Of a stretch of DNA of 64,000 nucleotides, positions 18,155 through 26,544 are shown piece by piece. A model generated the notes under the pieces. It ran no database searches. It worked only from the letters and a program-made list of their open reading frames with translations, and had not been told where the DNA came from. The first letter of the stretch is position 1. Each line of letters opens with the position of its first letter. Source of the DNA: an uncultured Planctomycetota bacterium (GTDB lineage: Bacteria; Planctomycetota; Planctomycetia; Isosphaerales; Isosphaeraceae); contig CAWGMQ010000010.1 in the NCBI GenBank assembly GCA_963823665.1, forward strand, positions 1,440,001-1,504,000, in the 5' to 3' direction. Position numbers and translations under genes: made by a program.

Positions 18155-18476
18155 GTCTTGCCCTTTCCCAACGTTTGACCTGGTGGGGAGTTTGGACAAG
18201 ATATCGCGAGCGGAACGAGCCGTCTCGCCGTTTCCGGCCGTGCAATTGCGATTCGGGCAATCTGGAGCCAGAGGCATTCTGGAGCCAGACACCCAACCTC
18301 TGGAGTTGGTTCCGGGGCACCCGTTGCAGACATCCACCGCTCAGGGGGCACCCGAGCTGTTCGCAGCAGCGGACGCGTCCAAACGCTGGCGACCTACCCG
18401 AGCGCACACGATTGCTGACCGTGCGTCTTACAGCGCGTGCTGTGCGCAACGTCGGCCGCGAGGCGCCCTGCGAACG

Positions 18477-18544
18477 CGGGACGCGAACCGGTGTCAGTCA
18501 CGTGTGCAGGTTTCGCCCGGGACCCACTCCGGTTGGTGGGTGTC
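18477..18544 (+). repeat. 68-bp direct repeat, copy 1 (ends in the intron target site)
   Basis: 67/68 identical to 26468-26535. Confidence 0.92.
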
Positions 18545-18545
18545 T

Positions 18546-19278
18546 TTGCGTCAGGAAAAGCTCGAGAAAGGAGGAAGTGCCTCGAAACACAGAAACCTTT
18601 CATCGCGACCCTGCGGGTTAACGAATCCCGCCCGGCAGAGCCTGGCCGGCAGCCGGAAGCAAGTCTTGCGTGGGGAGGGGTGACCCTCACTGCGAAGCGT
18701 AGACAGCGAGTCTCCATGCCATGCTATCGAGCCCCGAAATACTCATCGTGGGAGCCTCCGTTGTAGACACAAGCGGGGGCCGTGTCGACACGCCGCAATG
18801 GCCTGGCGTGTTCGGTCCTGCCGGGGTCCAAGAACATGGCGCAGGGACGCGAGGGTTGCTCGGGAACCTGAGAGCCCCATCCGTCTCCACTGACATTTCC
18901 GGCTCGGGAACCGGAATACCAACTCCCCGGCCCACGACCCCGCGTCGGGTCGCTGGGAGCGAACAAGACGCAAGGGTGGTATCGCCAAACGAAGGCAACG
19001 AAGTGCGGCGAAATGGGCGGACGGGAGTCGGAGTGCTCCGTAGTAGCAGTGAAGCGGGGGAATGGGCCCTCCCAGACCCTGTGGAGCGAAGGGGGTACCG
19101 TGTCGCGGACTGGAAGCCGGAACCACGCCGAGGGCATTGGACCTCAGAGCGCGTCACCGCGAGGCGACCAGATCGTGAGAGGGACAGCGACGCCGCGACA
19201 TGACGAGCCGGATGCCTTAATTGGGCACGTCCGGATCAGTGGGAGCCCTGGCGGAGCGATCCGCCAGGGCGACCCGGC
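18546..19278 (+). mobile_element. ORF-less group II intron, copy 1 (733 nt)
   Basis: Domain V GAGCCGGATGCCTTAATTGGGCACGTCCGGATC at 19205-19237; domain VI hairpin with bulged A at 19272; 5' TTGCG; EBS1 AGACAC (18765-18770) in a stem-loop pairs with exon end GTGTCT; domain IV only ~100 nt. Confidence 0.92.
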
Positions 19279-19302
19279 GGTTTCCCCGGTTGGTGGGTGT
19301 CT

Positions 19303-20035
19303 TTGCGTCAGGAAAAGCTCGAGAAAGGAGGAGGTGCCTCGAAACACAGAAACCTTTCATCGCGACCCTGCGGGTTAACGAATCCCGCCCGGCAGAGCCT
19401 GGCCGGCAGCCGGAAGCAAGTCTTGCGTGGGGAGGGGTGACCCTCACTGCGAAGCGTAGACAGCGAGTCTCCATGCCATGCTATCGAGCCCCGAAATACT
19501 CATCGTGGGAGCCTCCGTTGTAGACACAAGCGGGGGCCGTGTCGACACGCCGCAATGGCCTGGCGTGTTCGGTCCTGCCGGGGTCCAAGAACATGGCGCA
19601 GGGACGCGAGGGTTGCTCGGGAACCTGAGAGCCCCATCCGTCTCCACTGACATTTCCGGCTCGGGAACCGGAATACCAACTCCCCGGCCCACGACCCCGC
19701 GTCGGGTCGCTGGGAGCGAACAAGACGCAAGGGTGGTATCGCCAAACGAAGGCAACGAAGTGCGGCGAAATGGGCGGACGGGAGTCGGAGTGCTCCGTAG
19801 TAGCAGTGAAGCGGGGGAATGGGCCCTCCCAGACCCTGTGGAGCGAAGGGGGTACCGTGTCGCGGACTGGAAGCCGGAACCACGCCGAGGGCATTGGACC
19901 TCAGAGCGCGTCACCGCGAGGCGACCAGATCGTGAGAGGGACAGCGACGCCGCGACATGACGAGCCGGATGCCTTAATTGGGCACGTCCGGATCAGTGGG
20001 AGCCCTGGCGGAGCGATCCGCCAGGGCGACCCGGC
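19303..20035 (+). mobile_element. ORF-less group II intron, copy 2 (733 nt)
   Basis: Tandem copy at an offset of 757 bp; one difference seen (A18576 vs G19333); same GTGTCT|GGTTTCCC target. Confidence 0.92.
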
Positions 20036-20247
20036 GGTTTCCCCCCCGCGTTCTTTGCGGTAATGTGTACTGATCTCACGATAATGTTCTCACTTAGAGT
20101 GCTTGTGGCAAGTGGAAGCCAAATCGGGTCGTCAGCCGCTTGCCGGCGCCGGCATCCGAGGACGATATGCAGCTTCGGCCGGATTGTGTCGCGGACTGCA
20201 TCGGCTTGCTTGGCGTGAGCCAACGATAGGACCCTGGCGAAAGGATT

Positions 20248-23200
20248 CTACTTCGACGTCTTGCCCAGAAGTTCGTCGAGATGCGGAGTGACCGGCTCGT
20301 TTAACGGCAGGAACCAGATTGACGGCTTCTTCTGCGCACGGTATTGCCGGTCGAGAGATTCGAGCACTTCCTTGATCGTCTTGCCAGGGCCGAGGACCGC
20401 ATCGACGCGTGGCGCAATTTGTTCAGTCAGTGCCACAAACCAGGACGAGTTCTTCGCCTTCGCACTGTAGTGCTGGTCGAGCTTGTCGAGGACCTCTTTC
20501 GCGGGGATGGCCGGCCCGAGGAGTTGGTCCAGCAAGGGAGCGGCCCTTTGGTCGAGGCCGAGTTTAGTTCAGCGCCTCCCGAGCTTGATGGCGTGCGCGA
20601 GCCGCCTCGATCGCGGCCGGTGCGTCGATTGCGGGTTGGGGTGGTGGTATCCTTCCATCCTTCAATGCCGCGAGTAGCTCTGCCGACTGCGGACGGAGGG
20701 CGGGATCGATTGCCCCTACTTTCAGAGCGCTGTCGTACGCGGCGAGGGAGTCCTCGGCAGACTTTTGAGCCGCTGCCTGCGCGCCCAGACGCCACAGGCA
20801 TAGTGCGAGATGATAGCGAACTCGACCGTTCCACGATGCGTCCTCGGGCTCTGCCCGCTCGAGTTCCGGCATCAGCGCCGAGATCTCGTTGCAGGCTTTC
20901 TCCGCCAATCCGAGCTCGCGCAGCGCAGCCGCCCGGAGAATGCGAGTTCGAAGCATGGCAAAGGGCTTCACAGATTGGTCGGCCATGGGGTCTAGCGCGG
21001 CCTCGCAGAGCACGACTGAGTCGGCATGAGCACCCTCGTTGAAGGCGGCTAGGCCCCGTGCAGTCAGTTCATCCCCGTTTGGCCGAAGCAGGTTGTCGAG
21101 ATGCTGGGCGATTGGTTCATCCGGCCCGAGGAGATAGACAGCCGGCTTGCCCATTTCCTTGTAATGGCGATCCAGGAATGACAGCACGTCCGCGACTGAT
21201 CTGGTCGGGCCGATGAGCCTTTCCACCTCGGGAACGATCGGCGCCAGCTTGTCCGTCACCTCCGTCGTTGATTTGATCCGCCGGGAGATCTCGGGCTCGG
21301 CCAGCTTCAGCGCGGCGAGCAGTTGGCGGTAGTTATCGAGATTTTGACGCAGATTCGGATGCTCATGGCCCGTCGATCGTTGGAATCGCGATAAGATGCG
21401 AACGGCGCGTGCCATAAGTGGCTCGGCCGCCTCGATGCGGTTAGTGGAGAAAAGAAGCAACGCCTGATTGTTCAGGTCTCTTGCGACGGCGGGGTGATCG
21501 GGGCCGTACGTCCGTTCGTCGATGTCCATCGCCCGCCGATATAGCGGCTCGGCCTCCGACATTCGATTCGTCGCGCGGAGCAGCTCCGCCATGTTGTTGA
21601 GACTTTTTGCCACATCCGCGCTGTCGGGGCCGTACGAGCTCTGATCGATCGCCAGCGCCCGCCGCATCAGTGGCTCGGCCACCACCGTGCGGTTCGTGTC
21701 GTGGAGCAACCCCGCCAGGTTGCTGAGGTCGATCGCGACGTTGGGGTGGCGTGGGCCGTACGACCTTTCGTCGATCGCCAGCGCTCGCCGATATAGCGGC
21801 TCGGCGTCCGCGATGCGGTTCGTATCGTGGAGCAGCGTCGCCAGGTTATTGAGGCAATTCGCGACGAAAGGGTGGTCGGGCCCGTACGAATGCTCGTCGA
21901 TCGCAAGCGCCCGACGACAGAGTGGCTCGGCCTCCGCCATGCGATTCGTTGCCTGGAGCATCGCCGCCAGGTTATTGAGGCGATTCGCGACGAGAGGATG
22001 GTCGGACCCGTACGACTGCTCGTCGATCGCCAGCGCCCGGCGATAGAGCGGCTCGGCCTCCACCACGCGGTTCGTTGCCTGGAACATCGCCGCCAGGTTA
22101 TTGAGGCAATTCGCGACGAGGGGATGGCCGGGCCCGGTCGACGGCTCGGCGATCGCTAGCGCCCGGCGAAACAGCGGCTCGGCGTGCGCGGTACGGCCGG
22201 TCGCCTCGAGCAGAAGCGCCAGGTTGTTTAGGTCGGCCGCGAATTCAGCTTGGTCCGGGCCACGCGACCGCTCGTTAATCGCCAGCGCCCGACGGAATAG
22301 CGGCTCGGCCTCTGCGATGCGGTTGGTGTTACGGAGCAACTCCGCCAGGTTGTTGAGGTTAGTCGCGACGTTTGCATGGTCAGGGCCGTACGACCGCTCG
22401 TTAATCGCCAGCGCCCGACGGAATAGCGGCTCGGCCTCCGCGATGCGGTTGGTGTTGCGGAGCAACTCCGCCAGGTTGTTGGATCCCATCGCTTCCTCAC
22501 CGGGTTGCGCAGCCAGTTTCAACGCCTCGCGGAGATGGGGTTCCGCGTCGCTGTACCTCGCGAGTTCCAATAAGAGAACACCCAAATCGATACGCGAATC
22601 GAACCAGCTAGGATTCTCGCGAACAATCAGGTCACGAATTCTGAGTGCTTCGTCCCACCTCAGACTGCTTTCGTAAAGGTCAGCTTGAAGCACCGTCGGG
22701 CGATAGGCCTCGCGCAAGCGTTGGTCGGCACGATCGCGGAAAGACTTCGCCGCGCCGATTTTCCTTTCGATGGTCGGCTGTTTTTGTTCGAGGTACTTGA
22801 TTGCCGCATCGACACCCTCGATCGGTTTGTCGAGGATGTTGGCGGCTTCGATGAAAATCGGATCCGGATCTCCGGCCAAACCTTCGCGAATCGTCGCGAC
22901 GAGATCCTGTACGGCTTCCAAGGTCTGATCGCGGCGTTTCTCGATCTCGTCGCGCTTTCGCCAATCGTCAGGGGACCGCGCTTGCGCGGCGGCGATTTCT
23001 TCGACGGCCCGTCTGCGAATGTGGCTCTGCATCTTGCCGACCAGAACGTCAGGATCCGCGTCCTGTTTTCCCAGTGCTTCCAGGTTTTTGTTGACACTCG
23101 TGATTTGTGTGGTGAATCCTTGGCCGAGATTGAGCGTTACGGCCGCAACCGCCACCAGACTTGCCACGCCGATCGCGCCGAGGGCGACTCGCGTTCGTGA

Positions 23201-24043
23201 AGGAGGAGTCACGCTCGCCGGCCGCAGCCCAATCTCATTGCGCCGGAGTTCCCGCTGGAATCCACGGCGATCGGCGCCAGTGCGTTTCGTCAACAGCCCC
23301 CTGCAATAGCCCTTTAGAAGCTTGTATGCGGCTTCGGCTTGGGTCGGGTCCACGAGCACGGCAGTTCGGAGCTTGTCCATCGCCGCGTTGTCGGCATCAC
23401 CGTCGGTGCCGTCGGCACTGACATCAAGCGTATCGATTCTCATCATAGAGAAGAAATCGCGGAGATCCCTCGGCGAGGGCTCAGTCCCGTGAGTTCGGCG
23501 CCAGAATAAGTGAACATGGGAGAGGAGTATCTCAGACGCGGCTTTCTCCTCCTTGCTATTGGCGGCGTCCGTCAACACCGTACAGCGTGCATCGCCTTGG
23601 AACCGATCAAGTACGGCTGGTAGTTGCGAACAGGCCCACATAGGCGCCAGACCATCGGTCACCAGGACGAGACGATCGCGCTCCTGATCTAGCGGACGTT
23701 CCCACGGGTGATTTCCTCCCTTATGGAGTCGCTGTGACAGAAAGTGACGAACGAATTGCCCCACGGCTGATCCGAGCGCTGAATCCTCGGCGGCAGAAAG
23801 CCTTAGACCCCGCTTTGCTTGCAAATATACAGCGCCGCCGGCTGATGTGATGAGCAAGACGTCGTCGACGGGCAGTCCTGTCTCGCATCGAACTTCGGTG
23901 TAATAGACCGTTGGCTCCAACCCCCAACGCGGCGTCACAGCTTGTTCCGCGAGTACGCCGACCGCTGCCCATGCTGCGATGCTGTCCTGGAAGGAAAACC
24001 CTCCGGCAGCAGCAGCTCCGCCTCCTGTGCCAACGGGTAACAT
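20248..24043 (-). CDS. Restriction-endonuclease-like domain + TM segment + TPR repeats + C-terminal ~42-aa repeats (frameshift near 20568)
   Basis: GG..A..GFSFQ...E....VDD....YLQAK nuclease-like motif; nine 42-aa TPRs; removing one A near 20568 joins ORF 20248-20535 (ALTKLGLDQRAAPLLDQLLGP). Confidence 0.85.
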
Positions 24044-25776: not shown

Positions 25777-26328
25777 ATGGAGTCGTGGTACTTTGCTTAT
25801 GGCAGCAATCTCTGGATGGACCAAATGATCGAGCGCACGGACTCGATCGGCCATCCCGAGAACGGTCCCAGGATCGCTCGATTGGCGAATCATCGGCTCG
25901 TGTTTCAACGGCTGGACGCCGCAGACGAAGCCTTCGCCAACATTTTATGTCCGGGAGACGGCGTGCTTGGCGTGGTCTATCGCTGTAGCCAGACGGACCT
26001 CGAGCGGTTGGACCACTACGAAGGCGGGTATGAGCGCCGGTCGATTACCGTAACCGACCAGCATGGCGAAGTCTTGGCAGCCGTTGCGTATGTCCTGATC
26101 CCTGCGCAGGCAGCAATCACCGGCAGACCCACCGCCGCGTACCTGGAACGAATCGTTAGCGGCGCGCGGCAGCATGGATTTCCCGAGGAGTACATTCGCA
26201 ACATCGCCGCCATCGCGGATTCGGCAATTCTTCGAGGCGATCACTCCGAGCAATTCGATTGCTGTTCTAACGAGGAGTTCCAGACACCCACTAATTCCCA
26301 GGTCGGAGGTGGGAATCGAGGAGGTTGA
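25777..26328 (+). CDS. Gamma-glutamylcyclotransferase family protein
   Basis: YFAYGSNL, V.GVVY...LD.YEG; the C-terminal tail runs through the repeat site at 26274-26292. Confidence 0.9.
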   Translation: MESWYFAYGSNLWMDQMIERTDSIGHPENGPRIARLANHRLVFQRLDAADEAFANILCPGDGVLGVVYRCSQTDLERLDHYEGGYERRSITVTDQHGEVLAAVAYVLIPAQAAITGRPTAAYLERIVSGARQHGFPEEYIRNIAAIADSAILRGDHSEQFDCCSNEEFQTPTNSQVGGGNRGG

Positions 26329-26449
26329 CTCGACCGATTCAGGCTGAACCGCCCGGGCATGCTGTCGGCAGGTGGTCGCCTCAATGCGCAGATTATGTCG
26401 ACGGTTGCGCACAGGGCGAATGAGGCCGGTGGCATCTTGATCGCAAAAA

Positions 26450-26467
26450 GTGGGTGTCTTTGCGTCA
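26450..26467 (+). mobile_element. Target site plus 8-nt stub of the group II intron 5' end
   Basis: gtgggtgtct|ttgcgtca is identical to the exon/intron junctions at 18536-18553 and 19293-19310. Confidence 0.7.
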
Positions 26468-26544
26468 CGGGACGCGAACCGGTGTCAGTCACGTGAGCAG
26501 GTTTCGCCCGGGACCCACTCCGGTTGGTGGGTGTCCGGTTTCCC
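26468..26544 (+). repeat. 68-bp direct repeat, copy 2, with an empty intron target site
   Basis: Matches 18477-18544, then continues gtgtcC|ggtttccc with no intron. Confidence 0.92.

Follow-up and report, generated by a model that had tools for sequence, protein, structure and literature searches.

Two near-identical ORF-less group II introns of class E type stand in tandem at the end of a dispersed host repeat, each behind its own copy of a duplicated target site, and they belong to a family that has recently spread through the genome. The locus lies in a 64-kb window, the whole stretch of DNA analysed here (G000:C10:1440001-1504000), of the host genome G000 (16.46 Mb in 12 contigs). A first-pass annotation had described two 733-nt ORF-less copies that differ by one SNP and are separated by a 24-nt exon, and sequence comparison bore this out. 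Copy 1 (18546-19278) and copy 2 (19303-20035), both on the plus strand, repeat with a period of 757 nt and show a single mismatch (18576 A / 19333 G), the G being private to copy 2. Copy 1 is identical to G000:C11:579626-580358. The duplicated stretch extends from 18529 to 19287. The first target half-site (18531-18545, plus strand) is followed by copy 1; the 24-nt exon (19279-19302, plus strand) combines 9 nt of outer flank with the 15-nt second half-site and thereby equals one end-duplication unit, and the outer flank of the second site follows copy 2 (20036-20044, plus strand).

The pair is intergenic, flanked by a methyltransferase gene and a TPR gene, both of them minus-strand genes. This opposite orientation of both neighbours counts against the explanation we prefer below, as does our search for a sigma-70-like promoter at the pair, which found none. 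The protein encoded at 20564-24043 (minus strand) of the same window has 1159 aa and eight 126-nt TPR repeats; its N-terminal region matches no Pfam family.

Ribozyme anatomy

The Rfam model RF02005 (D1-D4-6) detected each copy with 138.4 bits (cut-off 49), which identifies the domain I core. RF00029, the model for domains V and VI, gave no match even at E ≤ 5 over 2.5 kb, an outcome that the first-pass annotation had listed among those that would refute it. At its gathering cut-off it also failed on the RT-bearing relatives, its sole match among the members scanned being L076 (40.6 bits). Because these relatives are missed as well and domains V and VI covary, we read the silence of RF00029 as a gap in the model. 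A review of bacterial group II introns warns that forms with an unusual domain V could be missed (PMC4424553), and the warning applies here, since RF00029 misses this intron.

Domains V and VI are real. Across 22 aligned 3' ends, 94.6% of 589 cells were paired, with two-sided changes in 13 of 27 pairs; none of 500 shuffles reached the observed value, and slid controls paired at 26-48%. Folding of D5-D6 gave z = -5.4. The 3' part of copy 1 (19205-19278, plus strand) comprises domain V (19205-19237), which starts with GAGC and has a 5-nt loop, a linker A (19238), domain VI with its bulged A at 19272, and the end GGC; in 20 of the 22 rows the G of the triad is left unpaired. In copy 2, D5 begins at 19962. 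Folding and covariation thus uphold the domains V and VI and the bulged A of the first-pass annotation. Its reduced domain IV of about 100 nt without an RT ORF was found as well (D4 19100-19200; ORF absent from both copies).

The intron ends read UUGCG...GC and depart from the consensus GUGYG...AY. We examined the ends of relatives at 108 given loci, of which 49 rows remained once both ends were required and duplicates taken out, and one false start was dropped. U1 occurred with a penultimate G in 34/34 rows and G1 with A in 14/14. Because the first and penultimate bases covary, we regard the unusual ends as a lineage variant, not as decay. The Id3 stem-loop carries GGCC in its loop and could pair with a loop at 18642, which makes it a candidate alpha'.

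Class assignment

The RT-bearing sister intron encodes a 450-aa RT that passes TIGR04416, and a Pfam search for an En/HNH domain returned RVT_1 only. Its nearest classified relatives are two plasmid RTs (53.2% and 52.6% identical), both typed 'E' in supplement rows of Miura 2022 (PMC8919778); its nearest named relatives are from Planctomycetota, many of them Isosphaeraceae, so the host probably belongs there too. Identity to g1-g3 references (Table S2, Toro 2013; PMC3552965) was 29-35%, and the sister RT fell outside them in a 33-row tree built from references other than class E, g4 and basal F. By its nearest classified relatives, the intron-encoded protein (IEP) appears to belong to the class E clade, and we call the intron class E-type. 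Class F, as represented by g1-g3, was ruled out, the RT grouping outside these references. So was class C (IIC): a search for a terminator-like site at the locus found none, and the conserved 5' target spans 9-11 nt.

With class E introns as described in PMC3753933 the family shares an RT without En, a compact ribozyme and the 5-nt D5 loop, a feature of IIE that is common to IIF according to the same source. Class E introns have alpha' in the Id3 stem-loop, for which the stem-loop with a GGCC loop found here is a candidate. The family differs in having U1 with a penultimate G instead of G1 with A, in a length (733 nt) slightly above the range of 450-700 nt, in its use of a dispersed repeat end as target, and in an ORF-less satellite that is more numerous than the RT form.

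Target site and host repeat

The motif TGGGTGTCY precedes all 20 insertions of this family (family A; 14 ORF-less and six RT-bearing) in the host genome, and target positions -9 to -2 are invariant in 15/15 distinct 5' flanks. The repeat targeting proposed at first pass is thereby confirmed, with the same repeat motif at 20/20 insertions. EBS1 (AGACAC, 18765-18770, plus strand), in the Id3 loop, is complementary to IBS1 (18540-18545) at 6/6 positions and covaries with the target in relatives: among 25 parsed relatives with nine EBS1 sequences, it matched the 5' exon at 6/6 positions in 20 and at 5/6 in five (raw counts). The EBS1 of copy 2 is at 19522-19527. A proposed EBS2 (UCAUC, 18743-18747, plus strand) would pair with target positions -7 to -11 (IBS2, about 18535-18539), in agreement with the span conserved among the 15 flanks. 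These complementarities indicate that the target of the ribozyme is 11 nt long and is recognised through EBS1 and, likely, EBS2.

The target sites are the outward-facing ends of dispersed inverted-repeat units of 110-260 bp. TGGGTGTCTG occurs 194 times in G000, against eight in the control, 126 times in the related genome G001, and at most 28 times in each of the remaining 39 genomes. The pattern TYGGTGTCAGWT had only 2-3 matches in the genomes G014 and G003 and is too narrow to link EBS1 type with repeat abundance, so that high target abundance is established for G000 and G001 only. There, the repeat would provide an abundant intergenic landing site.

At the pair, the host element (18287-18545) is non-coding and TIR/MITE-like, and more than 20 relatives of its inner 190 nt occur in G000 at 72-84% identity, with others in G001. 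At the left end of the element (18256-18295, minus strand) the target motif (18287-18295) is empty, and 17 nt are tandemly duplicated on its outer side. A related element at 26282-26544 has the same end empty and unduplicated; 26468-26535 is 99% identical to 18477-18544. Within this related element, the 8 nt at 26460-26467 match the 5' end of the intron. Tandem site pairs at repeat ends numbered 46 in G000 (0 in the control), with periods of 21-45 nt; 43 of the 46 had no intron behind the second site, and three of these 43 had a 24-nt period. The geometry of the 24-nt exon is that of these empty end duplications.

RmInt1, of class D, homes into ISRm2011-2, and class C introns follow terminators or attC. 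With these introns and with IS elements in REPs the family shares a multi-copy, low-cost target. Here EBS pairing recognises the short, non-coding end of a repeat in place of an IS gene or a hairpin. According to the review PMC4424553, bacterial group II introns find their targets in three ways, at homing sites, at terminators and at attC, and two of nine introns in P. putida lie near REPs (PMC1525189). Our literature search, which covered few subscription journals, turned up no paper in which group II introns home into the ends of TIRs or REPs.

The intron family in the host genome

A genome-wide search for further copies and an RT-encoding relative yielded 14 ORF-less copies (13 whole, one interrupted) and six RT-bearing sisters. 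Nine ORF-less copies lie within 0-3 differences of each other, which agrees with the earlier proposal of a non-autonomous, recently active intron; the 14 dispersed copies imply a recent spread of the ORF-less form. The RT frame is intact in two of the six sisters and broken in the assembly in the other four, a further point against our preferred explanation; only C6:911026 is both intact and uninterrupted. What had seemed to be a third intron, at C11:568738, did not hold up.

Junctions of target and intron 5' end numbered 26 in G000: the 20 introns, one 26-nt relic and five 8-nt relics. These stubs of 8-26 nt (26460-26467 in the window; G000:C3:130169, 131451, 198247, 200624 and 1268723) stand behind targets in composite repeat units and are probably relics of lost introns that were later copied with the repeat.

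The ORF-less intron is a chimera of the resident RT intron's domains I-II and foreign ORF-less domains III-IV. Its identity to the RT sister is 95-99% over nt 1-485, 65% in D3, 43% in D4 and 89% in D5-D6. Against a second ORF-less family in the genome (A', described below) the corresponding values are 56-85%, 82%, 74% and 75%. Domains III-IV (19033-19200, plus strand) accordingly come from a separate, ORF-less lineage and not from the resident RT intron, and D4 retains a decayed remnant of the ORF start. Recombination would have joined a D3-D4 of old ORF-less origin to the guide domain of the resident intron. A parallel split separates the ORF-less intron of G003 from the RT intron of that genome (95-99% over nt 1-485, D3 75%, D4 39%). 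Simple deletion of the resident RT intron was rejected for G000 by the D3 and D4 identities; the ORF-less intron of G014 shows a pattern that fits plain deletion.

The resident class E RT is a candidate helper that may mobilise the ORF-less intron in trans. The near-identity of the RT sister over nt 1-485, its RT without HNH and the intact, uninterrupted copy at C6:911026 speak for it. Two observations count against this explanation. We looked for an intact RT intron with this type of D3-D4 and found none. In addition, D4 is only 43% identical to that of the RT sister, which speaks against help in trans because the RT binds domain IV in another intron (PMC12584367).

Like the ORF-less introns in Trichodesmium dnaN (PMC4424553), the introns described here lack an ORF and have a related RT intron in the genome. 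They differ in forming 14 dispersed copies and in their chimeric make-up, as opposed to deletion of a helper. ORF-less forms are treated as rare and splicing-only in that review (PMC4424553).

Relatives in other genomes and their targets

ORF-less relatives at 72-81% identity were found in the genomes G001, G002, G003 and G014. The motif GG[GT]GWSAS spans the junction in 14/34 U-type rows from about ten assemblies (strict GGGGWSAS in eight), with an identical register in 13 of the 14 matches, and is missing from the other 20/34. It was found in 0/14 G-type rows and at 58 of 9800 random positions (0.6%). The TIRs of Y1 TIRYT genes have the consensus GGGGWSAS (PMC3733652, PMC6006769). Judged by these 14 of 34 junctions, the relatives appear to insert in TIRYT-type terminal repeats, and in one case (G014:C16) the intron lies inside an inverted repeat flanking a Y1 gene.

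The host repeat resembles the TIRtron/TIRYT repeats (Di Nocera 2013, PMC3733652; subclass 2.1 of Quentin 2018, PMC6006769) in that it is multi-copy and forms inverted pairs, dimers and clusters; further links are the relatives' targets, which match the motif, and the one that flanks a Y1 gene. In contrast to TIRYT, the local motif GGGTGTCTG departs from the GGGGWSAS consensus, and its core is inverted relative to the flanks: compared with the relatives' repeat, the flanks are similar and the core is inverted, and the EBS1 of family A follows the inverted core. Family A still faces outward, because the other strand is read. A cognate transposase was not found either, as none of 11 Y1 matches in G000 was an intact gene bracketed by the GGGTGTCT variant. 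Inverted copies of the GGTGTCAG variant flank a Y1 transposase gene at G000:C10:640288 and, bearing the intron, at G014:C16. Elsewhere in G000, a Y1 transposase gene is truncated at its border with a copy of the repeat element (L068, G000:C8:1768807), and a long array of roughly 60-nt repeats precedes an IS200-like Y1 gene (L063, G000:C5:1393038).

Family A' consists of ORF-less introns at about 72% identity with the EBS1 UGUCUG, which enter the motif of the G000 repeat on the opposite strand (G000:C11:703078, C6:913080, C8:519607 and C8:471837; also in G001). In the genome G021, truncated relatives (L187-L191) start with TAGCG after GGTGTCA, the forward strand of the canonical repeat, in the register of family A.

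HUH nicking leaves a free 3'-OH. A Y1 (HUH) transposase might therefore nick the repeat ends and let an En-minus intron prime on the nick or on single-stranded DNA, a mechanism that would fit either origin of the pair discussed below. The single register of the cut in GG[GT]GWSAS (13 of the 14 matches among relatives), the G014:C16 relative inside a repeat flanking a Y1 gene, and the outward orientation that family A shares with its relatives although the repeat core is inverted all speak for such priming. We nevertheless think it unlikely: EBS pairing suffices to explain the target, the motif is absent from 20/34 related junctions, family A' inserts on the opposite strand, and the 11 Y1 matches in G000 included no intact GGGTGTCT-bracketed gene.

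How the pair arose

The right end of the repeat was probably duplicated before any intron arrived, and each site was then probably filled by separate homing with help of an RT in trans. A tandem duplication of 24 nt would have created two sites. Intron RNA would be spliced and then reverse-spliced into DNA, helped in trans by the resident En-minus class E RT, with priming at a replication fork as for other En-minus introns. The second site was probably filled from the adjoining copy or from its twin on another contig. According to PMC4424553, En-minus introns obtain their primer at the replication fork, and IEPs can assist splicing in trans.

Other arrays point in the same direction. Two arrays in G000, at C11:553553 and C11:556675, are partly filled. 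A third, at C3:194700, consists of an empty site followed by an ORF-less copy and then an RT copy, for which separate insertions are needed. In all three of these arrays, few as they are, the innermost site is the empty one. Two metagenome contigs carry an RT copy, a 32-nt exon and an ORF-less copy, and G093 has a domain VI remnant, a 33-nt exon and an ORF-less copy. Two of 13 array matches in the metagenome were kept (11 were chance matches); of six in other family genomes, three were chance matches and two had the downstream intron only. Intron-free tandem ends, together with neighbouring sites that hold different introns elsewhere, imply that arrays arise by repeated homing. The array formation predicted at first pass is thus seen in mixed arrays elsewhere, and its claim that each copy of the site holds its own intron stands as far as the two filled sites are concerned; that they were filled separately is likely only.

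The alternative that a single homing event was followed by a DNA duplication of 757 nt (half-site, intron and outer flank) and one substitution is somewhat unlikely in our judgement, and would leave the biology of the family unchanged. Both copies carry a rare allele and differ at one position only: A at nt 633 is found in the pair and in only one of 10 other near-identical copies (C11:579626), besides the diverged C11:571327. This sharing fits duplication equally well. Moreover, the empty paralogue at 26468-26544 has one site, and the borders of the 757-nt unit, with 2-nt microhomology, are those of the short end duplications. On the other hand, duplications of empty ends all measure 21-45 nt (longer ones lie outside the reach of the search), and the other arrays contain different introns.

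That the tandem is an artefact, produced when a multi-copy element was assembled or polished, is very improbable. Among the pieces listed from four sequencing runs available as contigs only, none bridges both copies. In one of these (X1), the flank of another host-genome copy is present, with a depth of 2-4 for unique flanks and 15-28 for the intron. Frameshifts in four of the six RT copies, together with seven 100% identical copies of a second intron with mismatched downstream halves (see below), suggest errors or recombination in this assembly. Against an artefact, 12 contigs for 16.5 Mb would imply reads far exceeding 757 nt, the spacer has the natural geometry of the family, and comparable arrays occur in other assemblies. 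An orthologous empty locus was sought in G001 and none was found. Contig-only RNA runs contained diverged relatives; a search of them for the splice junction found none.

Nesting inside another intron is known for Methanosarcina introns. These, like EcKTE56.groEL, form multi-intron loci by repeated homing, as would the introns described here. Tandem copies of the EcKTE56.groEL intron formed in the laboratory at the same site and without a spacer (Gomes 2025, PMC12584367), whereas the two copies described here occupy separate sites with a short exon between them.

A second intron in domain VI

Class E introns of the host genome are themselves hosts to a further intron (intron B) of 2420 nt, which encodes a 634-aa RT-HNH protein and ends in TCGCG...GGC. 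All seven copies are identical (G000:C6:913782-916200 and six others; loci L034, L035, L036, L038, L039, L043 and L258), and 7/7 interrupt class E introns where domain VI begins: four RT-bearing and one ORF-less member of family A and two of A'. The intron B loops AGAUCC and UUCCCA are predicted to be able to pair with the domain VI site.

GGATCT precedes the insertion site in 7/7 hosts, and GGATCA is found in the 13 whole ORF-less copies, none of which is invaded; one RT copy with GGATCT is also free of intron B. A linker base that spares the ORF-less copies is a lead suggested by this comparison. In two copies the downstream half is of another type. The copies are identical and non-independent and two have mismatched halves, so recombination or misassembly may contribute to the pattern.

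The observations can be joined into one broader picture, which we offer tentatively and consider rather doubtful as a whole. A class E lineage would be specialised in the repeat ends of Y1 transposases and would retune EBS1 as these ends change (here, the inverted core), perhaps with priming by the transposase nick. A protein-less satellite would acquire domains I-II, target guide included, from any RT intron that happens to be resident and would have outgrown its helper partly through a linker base that protects it from the domain VI intron. If this were true, repeat, intron, satellite and predator intron would be in layered conflict. A 733-nt ORF-less intron with 14 copies, an 11-nt target, a candidate helper RT and varied guides makes trans-mobilisation and guide retuning testable, and the conflict of intron against intron is likewise directly testable in this system. 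The intron might also serve as a compact scaffold for En-minus targeting. None of this implies that the host benefits.

In a Halomonas sp. MAG (L155), a class E-type intron is followed by the start of a second intron with zero spacer.
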